From Candidatus Saccharimonadota bacterium (lineage in GTDB: Bacteria; Patescibacteriota; Saccharimonadia; Saccharimonadales; Saccharimonadaceae): a stretch of DNA of 32,000 bases. The DNA lies in NCBI GenBank assembly GCA_023898645.1, contig CP060232.1:750001-782000 (forward strand). Reading direction: 5' to 3'. The notes under the pieces were generated by a model, which did not search any database, had not been told where the DNA came from, and saw only the letters and a program-made list of their open reading frames with translations. Positions 7,089 to 14,252 of the stretch are shown here, in pieces. The position numbers and the translations under genes are program-made. The number at the start of each line of letters is the position of its first letter. Positions within the stretch are counted from its first letter, which is position 1.

Positions 7089-7289
7089 ATGCCTCGACGA
7101 CATAAACCAATCAAACATACGCCCTACAGTTTACCCGATAACGAAAGGGGCAAGACACGCTATCCTAGCGAACTGGCAGCCAAAAAAGCAGCAGAATTAA
7201 TCATGCTTCAGAACCCTCATCTTGAACTACGAGTCTATCAAGCATCAAACGGCGGTTGGTATTTAACCAGACAAAACACCGACAGATAA
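7089..7289 (+). CDS. hypothetical 66-aa basic protein (..RVYQASNGGWYLTRQ C-terminus)
   Basis: Internal ATG of track ORF 6867..7289. It is divergent from the atp operon. It resembles small proteins that end in a G-W-[HY]-L-T motif, recalled from memory only. Confidence 0.5.
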   Translation: MPRRHKPIKHTPYSLPDNERGKTRYPSELAAKKAAELIMLQNPHLELRVYQASNGGWYLTRQNTDR

Positions 7290-7318
7290 TTGACACCACA
7301 TAAAACATATCGTAATAT
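7290..7318 (+). promoter_or_regulatory. promoter of cassette A: TTGACA 7290-7295, 17-nt spacer, TAATAT 7313-7318
   Basis: Hexamers read directly from the sequence. The predicted TSS is near 7325, inside the palindrome TGACGTCA (7318-7325). Confidence 0.5.
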
Positions 7319-7349
7319 GACGTCACTTCACGTAGGTGGTGTAACTGAG

Positions 7350-7488
7350 GTACCTTGACAAGCAGACAAGCACAAGGTGAGGTGCAGAGGCGCGGACAAC
7401 GGCGCCACTCCATCTCATCTTGTGTTGGTAAGAATACACAAGCAGGGTTAGCCCTGAGGACAATCGCCTGTGAGAAACCGGAAGGAAA
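7350..7488 (+). promoter_or_regulatory. conserved structured 5' leader, copy A (139 nt, identical to 8093-8231)
   Basis: Base-for-base identity with copy B. Hand fold gives a 16-bp helix 7369-7384/7411-7426, an alternative hairpin 7419-7425/7436-7442, and a hairpin 7443-7447/7452-7456. It ends in the SD GGAAGGA. Confidence 0.6.
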
Positions 7489-7493
7489 CTGCG

Positions 7494-7898
7494 ATGACAA
7501 TCGCAATCCAAAAGGGCCGGGCGATAGTCTTGGCCTTACTGATGGCAATAGCAATGCTATTTGCAACAGGGGTTTCGACCTCGGTACTGCCACGAGCTCA
7601 TGCCGACAACTGGACGCGCATTGAAAACTACGCGTGGCAAGGAGGCAACTTCGCATGCGATGCCGTGCGAGTCATCGGACCGTATTGGGGTGCCGCGTCC
7701 TACGCCAACTGGAACCTGTGGCGCATCAATGATAATAAATCTTGGACACGACAAGATCTCTCTATCGTGCTTGCGCTTGGTGCCGCCCAGAAGTGTCCTG
7801 AATACTTCTGGATTTTCGCGTACCAGATACCTCCGGAAATCGCACAGCGCATCGCACCGCCACCCCCGCCCGCACCCGCACCACCAGCTCTACCGTAG
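7494..7898 (+). CDS. small secreted protein with a signal peptide and a Pro-rich C-terminal tail
   Basis: MTIAIQKGRAIVLALLMAIAMLFATGVSTSVLPRAHA|DNW has the n-h-c regions of a signal peptide and an AHA cleavage site. The tail is APPPPPAPAPPALP. SD GGAAGGA lies 7 nt upstream. The track start at 7470 (GTG) is rejected. Confidence 0.75.
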   Translation: MTIAIQKGRAIVLALLMAIAMLFATGVSTSVLPRAHADNWTRIENYAWQGGNFACDAVRVIGPYWGAASYANWNLWRINDNKSWTRQDLSIVLALGAAQKCPEYFWIFAYQIPPEIAQRIAPPPPPAPAPPALP

Positions 7899-7920
7899 AA
7901 AACTCTTTTAAATAGAGCAC

Positions 7921-7970
7921 GGAAGTGGCAAGCAGGCGGGTGTATTCATACCCGTCTGTTTGTCGCTTTC
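7921..7970 (+). repeat. conserved 3' UTR stem-loop, copy A (20 bp, 10-nt loop)
   Basis: 7921-7940 pairs with 7951-7970. The stem has 5 G-U/U-G wobbles that are valid only in a + strand transcript. It is homologous to 9595-9643. Confidence 0.6.
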
Positions 7971-7977
7971 ATTTCAC

Positions 7978-8002
7978 AGCCCCTTCGGGGGCTTATTTTT
8001 TT
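7978..8002 (+). terminator. intrinsic terminator of cassette A
   Basis: AGCCCC-TTCG-GGGGCT followed by TATTTTTTT. Identical to 9646-9670. Confidence 0.85.
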
Positions 8003-8092
8003 GAAGCAGTAATTGACATAATGCTAATGATTATGTTGTAGTTGTAGTTATTTATAAAATATGTCAAAATACCACCAACTTCAGTCACTGAA

Positions 8093-8231
8093 GTACCTTG
8101 ACAAGCAGACAAGCACAAGGTGAGGTGCAGAGGCGCGGACAACGGCGCCACTCCATCTCATCTTGTGTTGGTAAGAATACACAAGCAGGGTTAGCCCTGA
8201 GGACAATCGCCTGTGAGAAACCGGAAGGAAA
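8093..8231 (+). promoter_or_regulatory. conserved structured 5' leader, copy B
   Basis: Identical to 7350-7488. Preceded by the TTGACA box at 8013-8018. Confidence 0.6.
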
Positions 8232-8234
8232 ACG

Positions 8235-8327
8235 ATGAAAATCGCAATCCCAAGGTGCCGGGCGATAGTCTCGGTACGCACCATCGTCACCTACGACACG
8301 AATCGAACTGGAGGCTACGTATCATGA
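8235..8327 (+). CDS. 30-codon upstream ORF / leader peptide ([30 protein letters not shown])
   Basis: It uses the same SD and ATG position as the cassette A gene. Its first 13 codons are homologous to that signal-peptide start. Its stop TGA overlaps the ACAD ATG (ATGA at 8324-8327). Confidence 0.35.
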
Positions 8328-9559
8328 CCGAATCGAAACCGACATTCTCGCTGGAACTACCCGAAGACGTAGCCGATCTACGTGACTGGATCCATGAGTT
8401 CGCGGCGAATAAAGTTCGCCCGGCAGGGCATGAGTGGGACGAGCGTGAGGAAACGCCTTGGCCTATCATCAAAGAAGCGGCCAAAGTCGGAATCTATACG
8501 CCAGAGTTCTTTGCTCAAATGGCGTTCGACAAAAGCGGCCTCTTGATGCCCGTTGCGCACGAAGAGCTGTTCTGGGGTGACGCCGGTATCGCGCTGTCGA
8601 TTCTTGGCACCGGATTGGCCGCCGCCGCACTCTCAACGAATGCAATTGCGGGCGGCAGACCCGATCAGCTCCAGTGGTTAGCACCGATGTTTGGTACTCC
8701 CGAGGACCCCAAAGTCGCCGCATTCTGTTCTTCGGAACCGGGTGCGGGATCTGATGTTGGCGCCGTACGTACTCGTGCGCGCTACGATCAAGCAACAGAC
8801 GAATGGGTGCTTAACGGTACCAAAACGTGGGCGACCAATGGCGGTATCGCCAATATCCACATTGTCGTTGCATCGGTTTATCCCGAGCTCGGCAGCCGTG
8901 GACAAGTGTCGTTCATCGTGCCACCGAACACCCCGGGATTGTCTCAGGGGCAAAAGTTCAAGAAGCACGGCATCCGTGCATCGCACACTGCCGAGGTCGT
9001 ACTTGACAACGTACGACTTTCCAGCGACCTTCTCATCGGTGGTATGGAAAGTTTCGAAAAGCGAATTGCCAAAGTGCGCGCAGGCGGCAGTGCTGGCGGG
9101 CAAGCGGCAATGGCGACGTTCGAAAAGACACGTCCGTCGGTTGGCGCAATGGCCGTTGGCGTAGCGAGAGCAGCGTACGAGTACGCTCTCGAGTACGCCG
9201 GTCAGCGCGAGCAGTTCGGTCATAAGATCGGTGATTTTCAGGCCGTCGGGTTCAAACTCGCCGACATGAAAACGCAGATCGATGCCGCTCGACTGCTGGT
9301 CTGGCGTGCGGCTTGGATGGGCGCGAACAATAAGCCCTTCAACAGTGCCGAAGGCTCCATGGCCAAACTGTTTGCCAGTGAGACCTCCGTCCGAGTCACC
9401 GAAGAGGCTATTCAAATCCTCGGTGGTAACGGCTACACGCGGGACTACCCGGTGGAACGCTGGCATCGCGATTCCAAGATCTTTACGATCTTCGAAGGCA
9501 CCAGCGAAATCCAACGGCTAGTCATCGCACGAAGGCTCACCGGCCTGCCGCTCCGCTAG
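8324..9559 (+). CDS. acyl-CoA dehydrogenase (FadE-like)
   Basis: 411 aa with full-length ACAD similarity ([23 protein letters not shown] catalytic-Glu region). GGAGG lies 10 nt before ATG 8324. The 37-codon N-terminal extension in the track (GTG 8213) lies inside the leader and is rejected. Confidence 0.93.
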
Positions 9560-9594
9560 CGTCACTTTCAACAACTGAATAACAATTTCATCGT

Positions 9595-9643
9595 GGAAGT
9601 GACAAGCAGACGGCGTATTCACACCCGTCTGTTTGTCACTTTC
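9595..9643 (+). repeat. conserved 3' UTR stem-loop, copy B (19 bp)
   Basis: 9595-9613 pairs with 9625-9643. Three differences from copy A all preserve pairing (G-U to A-U or U-G to U-A). Confidence 0.6.
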
Positions 9644-9645
9644 AT

Positions 9646-9670
9646 AGCCCCTTCGGGGGCTTATTTTTTT
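9646..9670 (+). terminator. intrinsic terminator of cassette B
   Basis: AGCCCC-TTCG-GGGGCT followed by TATTTTTTT. Confidence 0.85.
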
Positions 9671-9679
9671 AAATAATCA

Positions 9680-9709
9680 TTGACATAAATCCAATAAAGT
9701 AATTATATA
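9680..9709 (+). promoter_or_regulatory. promoter: TTGACA 9680-9685 with TTATAT/TATATA about 17-18 nt downstream
   Basis: The -35 box is part of the conserved 3' module (ATTGACATA). The downstream ATG at 9720 would give a very short leader. Confidence 0.4.
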
Positions 9710-9719
9710 CATTACTACC

Positions 9720-10799
9720 ATGGGAAAACGAATGGCCGATTGCCTTGCTCTCTCTAACCGCATAGAGGAGTATTCAATCGGTGCCGACCTCATACACATT
9801 CCACCATCTCGCGACTACACCATTGGCGGCATTCACGCACTCCGCAGCCATATATACAAACTTCTTGAATTAGGTGATAACGATGATCTGTCTGTGTCCA
9901 GAAGCGTAAATCACTTTTTCAACCGTACCGACTACAAGGTTGCACGAGACGATCTAAATGAAAATCTCGACACACCGATCCAGCCAGATATCGTCGAATG
10001 GATAAGTACGGCATCCGACCATGACATAGAGCAATTCTGTATATGGAGTCTTTGCCGGACCATCTATCTTACTGGTTCACTTTCGCGCGATAAATCAAAA
10101 TTCACGGACCACGCTATGGACAAAACAGAAAAACTTATCTCTATCGGCCTGTTCCCGCCGTTTGCTCATTCCATTATGCGCAATGCAACCAATCGCTACG
10201 ACCTACGAGGGCTCGACTCATTTCATAGTGTAGGTTTACATAGGATTGCTTATTGCGGCGACGACGAAATTGGTGTTAGCAATCTATATGTTAATCGGAA
10301 AAATATGTCTATTCCGTCAAAGGAAATGAAAAGAACTATGTTTCATGAATACATTCATGGTGGTGGAAATGATCGTGGCTTCTTTAATGGCATTACAGGC
10401 AGTCATTGCATGCGCATCCTCGAAGAAGCGTTTGTCGAACATGCTACCGTAGTCGCTCATACGACACTCATCAGACAACCCAGTGTTATTCACCCTAAAA
10501 AACGCCTAAAACTATTCGAAGAAACCAGTGGCACATACGTGCCCGAACGAACCTTCCTCGCGACCACGTGCGATTATACCGGTATCTCCATCGAACACCT
10601 TAGCGAGGCATACTTCAGCCCTCGTGGAGACAGGCGTGGAGAATGGCTGCGCCATGGCATCGAGCGTAAAATTGGTAAATTCTTTGGTAGTCGTGAAAGT
10701 TTTTATAACTTTATTAATGCATATGAAAATATCAAACACACCGATCGCAACAGTTTCGTCTATGGCACGATTAACGAATTAACGAAGTGCGTCACATAG
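9720..10799 (+). CDS. hypothetical protein with a zincin-like HExxH motif (putative metallopeptidase)
   Basis: 359 aa. MFHEYIHG, plus EEAFVEH 24 residues downstream, gives gluzincin-like spacing. No signal peptide. The gene looks AT-richer than its neighbours by eye. The function is inferred from the motif only. Confidence 0.7.
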   Translation: MGKRMADCLALSNRIEEYSIGADLIHIPPSRDYTIGGIHALRSHIYKLLELGDNDDLSVSRSVNHFFNRTDYKVARDDLNENLDTPIQPDIVEWISTASDHDIEQFCIWSLCRTIYLTGSLSRDKSKFTDHAMDKTEKLISIGLFPPFAHSIMRNATNRYDLRGLDSFHSVGLHRIAYCGDDEIGVSNLYVNRKNMSIPSKEMKRTMFHEYIHGGGNDRGFFNGITGSHCMRILEEAFVEHATVVAHTTLIRQPSVIHPKKRLKLFEETSGTYVPERTFLATTCDYTGISIEHLSEAYFSPRGDRRGEWLRHGIERKIGKFFGSRESFYNFINAYENIKHTDRNSFVYGTINELTKCVT

Positions 10800-11165: not shown

Positions 11166-11184
11166 TCGCCTGCAAACATGAAAA

Positions 11185-11206
11185 CGCCCACAACTGGGCG
11201 TTTTTT
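11185..11206 (+). terminator. intrinsic terminator after the glutaredoxin-like gene
   Basis: CGCCCA-CAAC-TGGGCG followed by TTTTTT. It lies inside the 5' part of track ORF 11178.., which argues against that start. Confidence 0.8.
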
Positions 11207-11243
11207 CATAGTAAGAGGTAATTCGTTATATAATCATGAACCA

Positions 11244-12692
11244 ATGAACGAACAACGGGAACATGATTACGCTTTTGACGACTATCGTAACGACTTGCCG
11301 CCACGCGCCATGGGCAGTGAAACCGAATATACCAACGATTGCAACGTCGAAAAGTTGCTTAATCGCAGTCATTACGGCGGGCTTAATCGTAAACTGACGC
11401 ATTTTATACACCCGCGCTACTTTATCTCACCTGGTCGACACACAGCTCCCAGCGCCGTCACAAGTAACGGTGGCGAAGTATACTTAGACGTCACCGTACT
11501 CGAATACGCCACACCGGAATGCACGTCGTCAGAAGAACTTGTACTCCACGAGCGTAGTGGTGAGCAAATCATATGTGACACCATTGCAAGAATCGGCCTG
11601 TCAAATAGACTCCAGCCAAAAGTATACAAACGCAGTGGCTACGTAGAGGTCTGGGCAAAAAACCATTCCGTGCCCATCCTCGATGAAACAAGCATCGGTC
11701 ACCACGAAAGCTATACGAGCCTCAACGTCTTTTCGGCTATGCCGCTCGCAAATAGGGAAAACGAGATGTGCCGCAATACTGAAGCTCGTCAGTTCGCCGA
11801 CTACCTTGCCTTACGAAAACTTATAGACGGCGTAGGCATGGTAGCGGGCGACCATTTCTCAATCACTCAAAAACCACGCGCTATCGATTACAATTCTTTT
11901 ACCCGCGATACCGGTAGAGTAGGGAAAAAGCCTTTTCAGCAAAAAATGTCCCGACTCGAAGTTCGAAGCGGCGAAGGAAATAAATCCGACTGGGCCGTCG
12001 AGTTTAAGGCAGGACTGACGTCTCTCGTGCTACGACTCATCGAGCACAGAAGTTATCCGAAACAGCTGAAGCTATACGATCCAAATACTGCCGTCTTGAG
12101 AATCGCGCGCGACCCTATGGCCGACGTCTTACTCGAATCAGGCGCATACATGAAGGCGGTCGACGTGCTAAAAGGCATCGTCGACGCCGCCTACGAACTT
12201 GGACAAAAATTTGAAAACCTTCCCGCATACGAGCAAAAAGCCTACAATGATTTCATCCAATTCTATGACGATTTGCACAAAGTCAATCTGAAAGAAAACG
12301 ACGTTTCCGCGCTTTCCGATCGCATAGACTGGGCGGCGCGTTATGAATTCCTTATGCGACGCGGCGCGTCTTATGACACCATCACGACCGATGATCTACA
12401 GCAAGTCCAATACGATTTACTCTGGGATCGAATCGGTGAAAAAGACATCGCTCGCAAATGGTTTTCTCGATTCGGCCACACGGCCCTTTCGGTAGAAATT
12501 CCTGCACCGCCTCAAACACGCGCCGAAACACGTGTCCAAATCGCTAAAGAACTTTACGCAGCCGGCACCTTACGCAACGTCGATTGGAATAACATTTCGA
12601 CCAATGATGGTCACAGATACATTTCGCGTCATCCTTTAAGCAAAACTATGGAACGAATCGAAGACGATCAACCAACTGCTTATTATTCCTAA
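11244..12692 (+). CDS. PafA/Dop family amidoligase (Pup-ligase / depupylase family)
   Basis: Collinear matches to PafA/Dop blocks recalled from M. tuberculosis: MGSETEY (GIETEFG), NGGEVYLDVTVLEYATPEC ([20 protein letters not shown]), SIGHHESYT (SYGCHENYL), RLEVRSGEGN..LVLRLIE (RLHVIVGDSN..LVLEMIE), RIDWAARYEF (EIDWVIKRKL), PPQTRAE (PPQTTRA). The start at 11244 follows the terminator and TATAAT 11229-11234. An alternative start is 11310. Confidence 0.85.
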   Translation: MNEQREHDYAFDDYRNDLPPRAMGSETEYTNDCNVEKLLNRSHYGGLNRKLTHFIHPRYFISPGRHTAPSAVTSNGGEVYLDVTVLEYATPECTSSEELVLHERSGEQIICDTIARIGLSNRLQPKVYKRSGYVEVWAKNHSVPILDETSIGHHESYTSLNVFSAMPLANRENEMCRNTEARQFADYLALRKLIDGVGMVAGDHFSITQKPRAIDYNSFTRDTGRVGKKPFQQKMSRLEVRSGEGNKSDWAVEFKAGLTSLVLRLIEHRSYPKQLKLYDPNTAVLRIARDPMADVLLESGAYMKAVDVLKGIVDAAYELGQKFENLPAYEQKAYNDFIQFYDDLHKVNLKENDVSALSDRIDWAARYEFLMRRGASYDTITTDDLQQVQYDLLWDRIGEKDIARKWFSRFGHTALSVEIPAPPQTRAETRVQIAKELYAAGTLRNVDWNNISTNDGHRYISRHPLSKTMERIEDDQPTAYYS

Positions 12693-12812
12693 CCCGCAAT
12701 CTCGATACATTGCAAGTATTTCGTATATCGTTCACACAGATTAGTAAAAATCAGCAACCTCAGTACCAAGAAGGCTTAACTCATTCGCCATAATCTAGTA
12801 TGCTATGTCTAT

Positions 12813-14252
12813 ATGAATCGAGACATGAGTGACCGCCCGCACGAAAAGTGTGCGGTCGTTGGGGTATCGACAGCTGAAAAAAACAGCGACGCCGCCCGTA
12901 TTGCTTATCAAGGCTTGTTTGCTTTGCAACACCGCGGAGTCGAAGGCTCGGGCATTGTAGCGACGGGCGGTCGTGTACTCAAAGAAAAACGAGGACCAGG
13001 AATGGTGAGAGACGTTTACAGCGAAGCCGACATGAATCATTTAAACGGCTCTATCGCTGTTGGGCATAATCGTTACTCAACACACGGCGACAAATATTCA
13101 CATCTGCAGCCCGTCATAAGCGAAGCGATAGGCGCTGCATTCGCACACAACGGGACAATACCCGATACCGATGCCTTGAAAAAATACCTCACAGAACGCC
13201 GCTATCATACAGAGCAATACAATGATTCGGAATTATTTGGTCAAGCACTCTTTAGTAAATTACACGGCGGACGTGATTTTCCCGGCGCCATTCTCGAAGT
13301 TAGTCAACTGGCAATTGGCGCATATGCCTGCGTTGCGACGCACGGTGGCACACTAGTAGGATTTCGAGATCCGCACGGTATTCGACCGTTAGAACTTGGG
13401 CAATTCGAAGGCGGACTTATGCTGGCTTCAGAAACATGTGCCTTCGATACTGTCGGTGCCGAGCACGTGCGTTCAATCGAACCAGGAGAATTAGTAATGA
13501 TTCGAGGCGACCAGATGCAATCAACGCAATTCGCCGAGCCAGACCTAAAACTAGACGCGTTCGAACTGGTGTATTTCGCACGTCACGACAGCGTTATGGC
13601 AGGGCAACGGGTTAATGAAATCCGACGGCGTTTCGGCGAAGAGCTCGCCATTCTTCATCCTCCTTGGCAGAGCGATCACGATTCCATACTAGTCACGCCC
13701 GTGCCGGACACGTCAGTGCCAGCGGCAGAAGCCTACGCCCAAAGCCTTGGACTACGCCACGAAACTGCCATTATAAAAAACAGGTTCATCGGACGGACGT
13801 TCATGCGGCCGACTCACGCATCGCGTCATGACGACCTCAGGCTGAAACACACGATGATTCCAGAGCGCATTGAAGGCCGAGACCTTTACATGATCGACGA
13901 TTCAATCGTGCGAGGCAACACGCTACCGAGACTAGTAAAACTTGCACGCCACCTAGGAGCTCGGTCAGTGTCTGTACTTATTGCATCGCCTCCAATCCGT
14001 TACCCAGATTTCTACGGCGTTGACACTCCAAACCAAGACGAACTCATGGCCGCAAAACTGACAGTTGATCAGATGCGTAACGAAATCAATGCGGATTATC
14101 TAGGATTCTTATCTGTTTCAGCTCTCGTAAACGCAACTCGCATGCCTCGCGACGAACTGAACCTATCTGCCTTTACGGGCGAGTATCCGGCTAGTATCGG
14201 CAAGCAGGCACGTACCGTCGGCCAGCCAATTAGTCTCGAATACGTAGAGTAG
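12813..14252 (+). CDS. purF: amidophosphoribosyltransferase (class II glutamine amidotransferase + PRTase)
   Basis: A 12-aa propeptide precedes the Cys (HEK-CAVVGV). Also LQHRGVEGSGIV, GHNRYSTHG, and the PRTase motif YMIDDSIVRGNT. Confidence 0.9.
   Translation: MNRDMSDRPHEKCAVVGVSTAEKNSDAARIAYQGLFALQHRGVEGSGIVATGGRVLKEKRGPGMVRDVYSEADMNHLNGSIAVGHNRYSTHGDKYSHLQPVISEAIGAAFAHNGTIPDTDALKKYLTERRYHTEQYNDSELFGQALFSKLHGGRDFPGAILEVSQLAIGAYACVATHGGTLVGFRDPHGIRPLELGQFEGGLMLASETCAFDTVGAEHVRSIEPGELVMIRGDQMQSTQFAEPDLKLDAFELVYFARHDSVMAGQRVNEIRRRFGEELAILHPPWQSDHDSILVTPVPDTSVPAAEAYAQSLGLRHETAIIKNRFIGRTFMRPTHASRHDDLRLKHTMIPERIEGRDLYMIDDSIVRGNTLPRLVKLARHLGARSVSVLIASPPIRYPDFYGVDTPNQDELMAAKLTVDQMRNEINADYLGFLSVSALVNATRMPRDELNLSAFTGEYPASIGKQARTVGQPISLEYVE

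Follow-up and report, generated by a model that had tools for sequence, protein, structure and literature searches.

Positions 7290 to 9719 of the 32,000-nucleotide (nt) stretch of Candidatus Saccharimonadota DNA analyzed here (the window) contain two neighboring monocistronic transcription units, each self-contained and with a cargo of its own, from a family that is found throughout Saccharibacteria. Unit A carries the gene for a small secreted protein (cargo A) and unit B the gene for an acyl-CoA dehydrogenase (ACAD; cargo B), and each open reading frame (ORF) sits in a noncoding shell that is nearly the same in both. Taken as a whole, the comparative data are best explained by a family of shells whose ends would pair in the RNA, which would serve as an mRNA chassis, and between which cargo would be exchanged by recombination; we assign this explanation a probability of about 0.7. 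The idea of a reusable expression shell with exchangeable cargo had been put forward in a first-pass annotation, made from the letters of the window by themselves, and it proved largely right, while the mechanism now points to RNA structure and homologous recombination. Related loci and contigs compared with the window are denoted by L numbers (L001, L002, and so on).

The transcription units and their family

An exact-pattern scan for two leader elements described below, the 5' box and the P1 hairpin, across one genome per species returned 44 loci, almost all labeled as Saccharibacteria. Scanning metagenome contigs with the P1 pattern only returned at least 120 loci, and de-duplication left 147 nonidentical shell units. 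The P1 pattern gave no matches among the IMG/VR viral contigs; thus, shell units are not found in recognized viral contigs.

In aligned units, the parts follow one another in a fixed order. The promoter is of the sigma-70 type, and the predicted transcript begins with a hairpin (P0); after it come the 5' box, P1, and a leader domain that ends in the Shine-Dalgarno sequence (SD). The 5' box is a single-stranded, invariant-looking element of 12 to 13 nt with the consensus TTGACAAGCAGAC and a highly conserved core, TGACAAG. P1 is a long hairpin, conserved at its base (CACAAGrTGAG / CTCATCTTGTG) and variable at its top; 11 of its 22 predicted pairs show compensatory changes across 80 sequences. 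In most of the family, a hairpin equivalent to P0 (yTyGTTGAG..CTCCrArG) comes before the 5' box; because MAFFT misaligned this element and RNAalifold did not recover it, P0 rests on inspection.

The ORFs that follow the shells are mostly 60 to 300 amino acids (aa) long and mutually unrelated. Almost none are recognized by Pfam; a few have matches to families of phage proteins with unknown function. As the first-pass annotation had supposed, the shell pre-exists its cargo: it is a widely reused expression module that occurs with more than 30 unrelated ORFs across Saccharibacteria. Syntenic contigs may hold several units with the same leader (four in L002, three in L004, and two in L001).

One cargo ORF outside the window, at L010:133-897, encodes a 254-aa protein with a Tad4 (type I Thoeris inhibitor) domain (E = 1.4e-29), which hints that some shell cargo serves anti-defense functions. 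The L010 contig was binned as "Spirochaetia" and is probably a misbinned short contig.

Within the window, the two leaders form a direct repeat (7341-7488 and 8084-8231) that repeat detection and pairwise alignment place at 148 nt and 99% identity, with 139 consecutive identical columns and an offset of 743 nt. The first 14 codons that follow (7492-7533 and 8233-8274) are still 88% identical. The 3' modules (7925-8005 and 9594-9673) are 91 to 94% identical and keep the same order of hairpin, terminator GCCCCTTCGGGGGCTTATTTTTTT, and then TTGACATAA. On both sides of each ORF, in units A and B alike, the motif GACAAGCAGAC stands in inverted orientation. Exact copies of TGACAAGCAGAC occur at 7356, 8099, and 9600, and degenerate or inverted copies at 7926, 7954 (minus strand), and 9627 (minus strand); at up to two mismatches, seven matches are observed versus 2.5 expected by chance. 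The tandem arrangement, the identical leader, the similar 3' hairpin and terminator, and the inverted motif bracketing each cargo were all features of the first-pass annotation, and all of them held.

Both units carry the elements that delineate the family: a promoter with P0 and a TTGACAAGCAGAC-type 5' box (7290-7367 and 8013-8110), a P1 hairpin with the conserved base (7371-7424 and 8114-8167), and a 3' box complementary to the unit's own 5' box (7954-7965 and 9627-9638) together with a local arm (7926-7937 and 9600-9611). They are full members of the Saccharibacterial 5' box/3' box transcription-unit family delineated here.

All features of the two units lie on the plus strand. Unit A opens with a sigma-70-type promoter (TTGACA-17-TAATAT; 7290-7318), and the same position-specific type stands upstream of the first unit in L004, L005, and L033. 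P0, the 5'-terminal hairpin of the transcript (ACUUCA...UGAGGU; 7325-7351), was identified by inspection. It is followed by the 5' box (7355-7367), by P1 (CACAAGGTGAG...CTCATCTTGTG; 7371-7424), and by the 3' part of the leader (7425-7493), in which two small hairpins precede the SD GGAAGGA (7480-7486) and which is a divergent counterpart of the RAGATH-10 domain discussed below. Cargo A (7494-7898) precedes a 3' hairpin (7924-7967) composed of the local arm TGGCAAGCAGGC (7926-7937) and the 3' box GTCTGTTTGTCG (7954-7965), and the unit closes with an intrinsic terminator (7978-8002).

Unit B begins with a candidate promoter region (8013-8075; TTGACA at 8013, candidate TTGTAG-17-CAAAAT) that is homologous to the region upstream of the ACAD units in L001, L002, L004, L017, L007, and L008. 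P0 (ACUUCAG uca CUGAAGU; 8078-8094), the 5' box (8098-8110), P1 (8114-8167), and the 3' part of the leader with its SD (8168-8234) follow. A relic ORF of 30 codons (8235-8327) leads into the ACAD gene (8324-9559; 411 aa), after which come a 3' untranslated region (UTR) segment (9560-9593), a 3' hairpin (9594-9644) with the local arm TGACAAGCAGAC (9600-9611) and the 3' box GTCTGTTTGTCA (9627-9638), and an intrinsic terminator (9646-9670). Both terminators consist of a GC-rich hairpin and a T run (7978-7993 plus T7 and 9646-9661 plus T7), as predicted for intrinsic termination.

The TTGACA within the 5' box was considered as a second promoter and rejected, as no usable -10 element lies 17 nt downstream. 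A promoter (TTGACA-17-TTATAT) and the very short leader of the next conserved gene (9720-10799) occupy 9680-9719, outside the shell; L004 and L033 are arranged alike. A small conserved 66-aa ORF (MPRRHKPIKH...GGWYLTR; 7089-7289 in the window), for which no family match was found, immediately precedes the first unit in the window, L002, L004, L005, L017, and L033.

Predicted base pairing between the ends of a unit

Downstream of nearly every ORF lies a 12-nt word, the 3' box, that is complementary to the unit's own 5' box. It always stands just before a ribozyme or terminator, about 550 to 750 nt from the 5' box (median, 645 nt). Where the 5' box has changed, the 3' box is matched to it, as in GGCAATC/GATTGCC (about 30 units), GCAGAT/ATCTGC, GCAGCC/GGCTGC, GTAGAC/GTCTAC, GACAGAC/GTCTGTC, TGATAAGTAGAC/GTCTACTTATCA, and TAACAAGTAGGC/GCCTGCTTGTTA. 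Over 45 distinct combinations, 93% of cells are paired and 9 of the 12 positions have changed on both sides, counts that are biased, as 3' boxes were found by complementarity to their own 5' box, and that are not independent events, as the units are phylogenetically related. None of 500 shuffles reached the observed pairing, and slid registers were 27 to 43% paired. By chance, a perfect 12-mer would turn up about 1.5e-4 times in 2.5 kb, and the location of the 3' box beside a ribozyme or terminator is independent evidence for the site. Different matched box pairs coexist on single contigs (L002, L004, L019, and L057), which argues for pairing within a unit and not for a shared protein site.

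A local arm 10 to 60 nt upstream is a second partner of the 3' box and likewise covaries with it (e.g., TGGCAGGTGATT with GATTGCCTGTCA). Under a scoring that treats G-U and A-C alike, the local arm and 3' box of 47 distinct units form 416 Watson-Crick, 125 G-U, 6 A-C, and 17 other pairs (p = 5e-30), and the 5' and 3' boxes of the same units form 542 Watson-Crick, 15 G-U, 5 A-C, and 2 other pairs. The ratio of 125 G-U to 6 A-C in the local arm indicates that the sense-strand RNA is under selection. Together with the adjoining ribozyme and the position of the promoter, the local arm is what the RNA-level argument rests on. The predicted box pairings are thus shown to operate at the level of the sense RNA, each unit having its own match, and the 3' box, by the same comparison, appears to have been endowed by selection with a weak local partner and a strong distal one.

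Two further loci show departures from the usual layout. The minus-strand unit at L074:2140-2265 has no cargo, and a single uninterrupted hairpin (CGACAAGTAGACAGCACAAGGTGAG...CTCATCTTGTGCTGTCTACTTGTCG) runs through its 5' box, P1, and 3' box. The next hairpin is unusual in that it ends in CGAAA and has no CUGAUGA core, and the same 3' module recurs about 240 nt upstream. At L004:7871-8570, a unit encoding a 193-aa secreted paralog of cargo A has a short leader without P1, in which the SD lies 20 nt after the 5' box TTGACAAGCAAAC, and has its own matching 3' box, GTTTGCTTGCCA.

A type III hammerhead ribozyme is predicted within a few nucleotides after the 3' box in 56 of the 109 units whose downstream sequence is long enough, and terminator-like hairpins close the others. 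The typical sequence (...GTCTGCTTGTCA TATTCGCTC|CACAAATGTGTATTTGTG CTGATGAG TCCAAAAGGA CGAAA GCGAA) has an invariant CUGAnGA / CGAAA core and three covarying stems (16 pairs, 13 compensatory). The Rfam type III model, RF00008, scores the hammerheads of sister units at 33 to 39 bits, under its cutoff of 48.5 bits. In the window, each 3' box is followed by a CTTTCAT remnant and then by the intrinsic terminator. The terminator of unit A stands where the orthologous secreted-protein units in L001, L004, and L005 retain a hammerhead-like sequence; the window has lost its ribozyme.

We note variant ribozymes at several loci. In two close relatives of the window, the core of the hammerhead that follows the secreted-protein unit (L001:600-650 and L004:7741-7790) has the sequence CCGACGAG, with C in place of U4, and this ribozyme has probably been inactivated or is a variant form. 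L002 contains two hammerhead-like elements (8896-9010 and 10494-10610), 90% identical to each other, with an insertion of about 100 nt in stem II (CTGACGAG tgcggattttgagag...ggggagtccaaaaggaCGAAA) that includes a perfect palindrome, TCAAAATGTTTACATTTTGA.

The leader also connects the family to a known RNA motif. RF03147 (RAGATH-10) matches the SD-proximal half of the leader in L011, L023, and L027 at 44 to 60 bits (cutoff, 41.2). In this model CUCAUCUUG, which is the 3' strand of P1, pairs with GAUGAGGAG at the SD. Because CUCAUCUUG can pair either within P1 or with the SD region, the leader has two mutually exclusive folds. The link to RAGATH-10 and to the hammerhead, which the first-pass annotation had missed, comes from the related loci and not from the window. 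In the predicted fold of the window leader, UCUCAU could pair with GUGAGA (7470-7476) around two small hairpins, a pairing that shows no covariation and that leaves the SD uncovered. Rfam returned a tRNA as the sole match in the window at gathering score, with chance-level matches at E ≤ 10, and by these tests the window units are not members of RF03147 or RF00008. RAGATH motifs were defined through their association with genes that lie near hammerhead and twister ribozymes. For most of those that are not proven ribozymes, the function is reported to be unknown (PMC11061315). In the searchable literature we found no description of P0, the 5' box, P1, the 3' box, or their covariation, and nothing relevant on RAGATH-10 or on hammerheads in connection with Saccharibacteria, Patescibacteria, or TM7.

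Several observations, in addition to the bias and nonindependence of the box counts, weigh against our explanation. The window contains no hammerhead (RF00008 gave no match at gathering score or at E ≤ 10), and RF03147 does not match the window leader between 7200 and 9800, even at E ≤ 10. In a separate test, the 5' and 3' box pair by itself showed 28 G-U versus 21 A-C, a weak asymmetry. The minimum-energy fold of the window places the 3' box in a local hairpin of 23 bp and leaves the 5' box unpaired. Finally, recombination-driven exchange of cargo is inferred from patterns among related loci. As the local arm in the window is almost fully Watson-Crick, distal pairing may be little used in this lineage, and the folding model suggests that the 3' module of the window probably works mainly as a stabilizer ahead of a conventional terminator.

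The minimum-energy fold would also suit an arrangement in which the 5' box and the local arm are two binding sites for a trans-acting factor (a small RNA or an RNA-binding protein) and the 3' box forms a stabilizing or terminator-proximal hairpin alone, with no pairing between the ends; the strong conservation of the TGACAAG core points the same way. We consider this unlikely. The 5' box remains almost perfectly Watson-Crick to its own 3' box even when it has changed, and such variants coexist on one contig. Moreover, G-U pairs systematically weaken the local arm and not the 5' box, and in L074 the boxes extend P1 as one helix, all of which speaks for end-to-end pairing.

Cargo genes and the history of the locus

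The first-pass annotation had judged both cargo genes to be GC richer than their surroundings and to be foreign, perhaps actinobacterial. The ACAD gene (GC, 0.576) and the secreted-protein gene (0.560) are indeed the two GC-richest of the 32 genes in the window, versus 0.497 ± 0.029 for the other 30; the excess is modest (z of about 2.2 to 2.7). Nor is the GC content at third codon positions unique to them (0.626 and 0.578, versus 0.512 ± 0.052), as one native gene reaches 0.631. The suggestion of foreign origin stood for the ACAD and not for cargo A.

The ACAD contains the expected N, M, and C domains (PF02771, PF02770, and PF00441; E values from 2.6e-8 to 8e-55). It is 75 to 79% identical to many proteins of Mycolicibacterium and Mycobacterium and 88 to 93% identical to its relatives in Saccharibacteria of the same lineage. 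These similarities show, at the level of protein comparison, a Mycobacteriales-type ancestry for the unit B enzyme. Further ACADs that are 79 to 81% identical to that of the window occur in a different gene context at L007:9931-11300 and L008:3716-5040. Their shells have a short leader (P0, 5' box, SD, and ATG), without P1 or the relic ORF, and a promoter region homologous to that of unit B. The L008 enzyme is 84% identical to that of Mycolicibacterium, closer than it is to the window ACAD. We considered whether L007 and L008 might be contigs of a mycobacterial donor and rejected this, since their GC contents (52% and 47%) and shell motifs are Saccharibacteria-like. The presence of the ACAD in a shell in these two loci implies that its acquisition predates the divergence of the lineages concerned.

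Between leader and ACAD, unit B retains the trace of another gene. The first 14 codons of the relic ORF are 88% identical to the signal-peptide start of cargo A, and its stop codon overlaps the ACAD start at 8324 as ATGA, in agreement with the short ORF that the first-pass annotation had placed there along with the dehydrogenase. The relic ORF is open in all seven distinct ACAD units (26 to 30 codons); six of these have a gap of 5 nt between its end and the ACAD ATG, and the window has the overlap. An ORF that is kept open and ends at or near the ACAD start fits translational coupling, by which we infer that the ACAD may be translated. At the other end, the 3' UTR segment CAACAACTGAATAACAATTTCAT of unit B is the 3' end of a secreted-protein unit; it is common to L017, L033, and unit u3 of L002, a secreted-protein unit whose stop codon lies within it. 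Its origin in a secreted-protein unit indicates that an ACAD replaced the body of such a gene. ACAD synteny is kept in at least six related assemblies, and more distant Saccharibacteria have a promoter of the same type; the capture is old and vertically inherited, with a composition that is partly ameliorated.

Cargo A is a 134-aa secreted protein with two cysteines. It has a signal peptide and 12 close homologs and falls into a family with 2 representative clusters among 1.84 billion proteins. Its AlphaFold model is all-alpha (mean confidence score [pLDDT], 80). Cargo A has no Pfam match, its model has no match in the PDB, and a profile search recovered the family itself alone. A single paralog has a subthreshold match to DUF732 (E = 0.068), and the signal peptide and a weak Cys-...-CP pattern recur in longer paralogs (191 to 213 aa). 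By these searches, cargo A is a lineage-restricted orphan with no detectable foreign origin, and the first 14 codons of the shell belong to the cargo A family.

The locus keeps its flanks in related genomes, with the ATP synthase operon and the 66-aa gene on one side and a gene of 360 to 390 aa, glutaredoxin, and Pup ligases on the other. Between these flanks, the number, order, and type of cargo vary. The window and L001 have cargo A and the ACAD; L004 has cargo A, the 193-aa paralog, and the ACAD; and L002 has paralogs of 193 and 213 aa, then cargo A and the ACAD. In L017, the order is a 191-aa paralog, a 238-aa ORF, and a divergent ACAD (76%). L033 has a single unit with an ACAD that is 49% identical and that is nearer to Acidimicrobiia enzymes (57 to 58%) than to the window type (48 to 51%), with the same relic ORF before it and the same 3' UTR after it. 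The cargo exchange proposed in the first-pass annotation is supported by variation between the same flanks, while the ACAD itself is an old, inherited member of the locus.

We note that the 238-aa ORF of L017 (4064-4780), which lies between the secreted-protein and ACAD units and has a weak Xre-like helix-turn-helix, lacks a recognizable long family leader. The Pup ligases on the downstream flank are two adjacent genes (PafA/Dop-like; 11178-14252 in the window) beside glutaredoxin. Pupylation is typical of Actinobacteria, so in a small genome of the Saccharibacteria type these genes could be another host-lineage trait.

The near identity of the two shells in the window does not stem from a recent insertion. 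Leaders of the cargo A and ACAD types are 78 to 87% identical to each other within related genomes and 99% identical in the window, and both window leaders are closer to ACAD-type leaders (87 to 88%) than to A-type leaders (77 to 81%). These identities, together with the ACAD-type terminator of unit A, point to conversion of the unit A shell by the unit B shell. The comparison shows a recent gene conversion from the ACAD unit to unit A that homogenized both shell ends and, in doing so, replaced the unit A hammerhead with a terminator.

In a simpler history, a gene and its UTRs would have been duplicated in tandem once, at this locus, and a foreign ACAD would then have entered one of the copies; the shells would have no special role. 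The signal-peptide relic in unit B, the tandem placement of the units, and the 3' UTR segment in common with a secreted-protein unit are all in keeping with it. As a complete account, it is refuted by the distribution of the shell, which occurs in more than 140 nonidentical units, spread over many species of Saccharibacteria and over loci that are unrelated to one another, with ORFs that are likewise unrelated. The covarying structure and the ACAD in the short-leader shell of the distant L007 and L008 also oppose it, and we regard it as highly improbable. The cargo does vary in related genomes, the shells do occur elsewhere, and duplication and recombination remain part of the locus history within the explanation that we favor.

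Whole units can also be present or absent at a site. The tRNA-Leu(tag) and tRNA-Val(cac) genes are spaced 15 nt apart in L135 (6054-6067), L020, and L052. In L055 (7256-8155), L070, L086, and L115, they are separated by about 900 nt that consist of one whole minus-strand unit (of the TTGACAGGCAATC clade) and the tRNA-Val promoter. Compared with L135, the L055 insertion includes promoter and terminator, and no target-site duplication is visible.

This presence and absence of units, the inverted 12- to 13-nt repeats that bracket each ORF, the highly diverse cargo, and the cargo-less palindrome of L074 might be taken to mean that the boxes are DNA recombination sites of a cassette system resembling integrons or miniature inverted-repeat transposable elements (MITEs), in which a recombinase or transposase encoded elsewhere moves ORFs between inverted repeats. 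The first-pass annotation had viewed the inverted motifs as possible recombination sites of this kind while seeing no integrase or transposase. Among the matches listed (25 of the 30 matched families), the ORFs of the 32-kb window indeed include no integrase, transposase, IntI tyrosine recombinase, or other recombinase family. By reading, neither window hairpin contains the GTTRRRY core of attC, and each ORF has its own promoter, unlike the promoterless ORFs of cassettes. MITEs and insertion sequences (ISs) have terminal inverted repeats (TIRs), whereas the repeats here have the promoter and the terminator or ribozyme beyond them, and the L055 insertion carries its promoter and terminator with it. 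Box pairs that differ between units of one contig and match within a unit indicate base pairing and not the sites of one enzyme, and the 125:6 excess of G-U over A-C in the local arm and the ribozyme adjoining the 3' box place that pairing in the transcript. The units are not integron cassettes or TIR elements, and DNA sites served by a remote enzyme are quite improbable; the evidence favors RNA base pairing instead.

Proposed mechanism and comparison with known systems

According to the mechanism that we propose, the shell would be an mRNA chassis whose defined 3' end would be fixed by a ribozyme or terminator. The 3' box would toggle between a weak local hairpin, which would protect the 3' end, and a strong duplex with the 5' box. 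That duplex would abut and stabilize P1, forming one continuous helix with it in the cargo-less unit, and would favor the fold that keeps the 3' strand of P1 (CUCAUCUUG) from the SD region. Both stability and translation would then depend on the transcript being complete. At the DNA level, homologous recombination between shells could move, duplicate, delete, and swap cargo, either inside one genome or with imported DNA. As every unit shares a shell of 100 to 150 nt at each end, a dedicated recombinase would not be necessary.

A broader formulation extends this to a phylum-wide modular mRNA chassis for accessory genes that would combine a RAGATH-10-type leader, end-to-end box pairing, and 3' excision by a hammerhead, with the shells acting as homology arms without a dedicated recombinase and with cargo that includes host-derived metabolic genes and anti-defense (Tad4) genes. 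We advance it tentatively, at a little short of even odds.

If true, bacterial hammerheads and RAGATH motifs would acquire a concrete job in 3'-end formation and completion-dependent control. Why many bacterial hammerheads exist, and what role the nearby RAGATH motifs play, has been open since their discovery. Here, both motifs fall within one defined transcription unit, with the leader motif in the 5' UTR, the ribozyme in the 3' UTR, and the two ends tied by covariation, and a loose "association" becomes a model, open to testing, in which 3'-end processing, the pairing of mRNA ends, and translational licensing are linked. Ultrasmall parasitic bacteria may, in this way, plug acquired genes into ready-made expression modules, as exemplified by the fatty-acyl-CoA dehydrogenase from mycolic-acid bacteria, the kind of organism that some Saccharibacteria parasitize. 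The shell is also a candidate native expression cassette for Saccharibacteria genetics.

The closest known relatives of the units are the RAGATH-10 and hammerhead motifs. Sister units have leaders that match RF03147 and, after the ORF, a type III hammerhead in which every core nucleotide is present; unlike these, the window has neither an RF03147 match nor a hammerhead, and P0, P1, the two boxes, and their covariation lie outside the Rfam model. Long-range pairing between the ends of one mRNA is known from the interactions of 5' and 3' UTRs in Staphylococcus aureus icaR and Bacillus subtilis hbs, in which end pairing affects stability or translation and, for icaR, the 3' UTR pairs with the SD. 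Those are single-gene cases, whereas the shell is modular, recurs in more than 100 units with different ORFs, pairs upstream of P1 and not at the SD, and adds a 3' end defined by a ribozyme. The history of the locus resembles concerted evolution and xenologous displacement, given leaders that are 99% identical versus 78 to 87% in relatives and a different ACAD in the shell of L033; the converted tracts here, however, are noncoding shells around unrelated ORFs. Finally, integron gene cassettes likewise form arrays of short unrelated ORFs, often of unknown function, each with a conserved imperfect palindrome, and their cargo also varies between relatives. The units described here differ in that the two halves of the palindrome flank the ORF, that each unit has its own promoter and its own terminator or ribozyme, and that the pairing tolerates G-U as RNA does.

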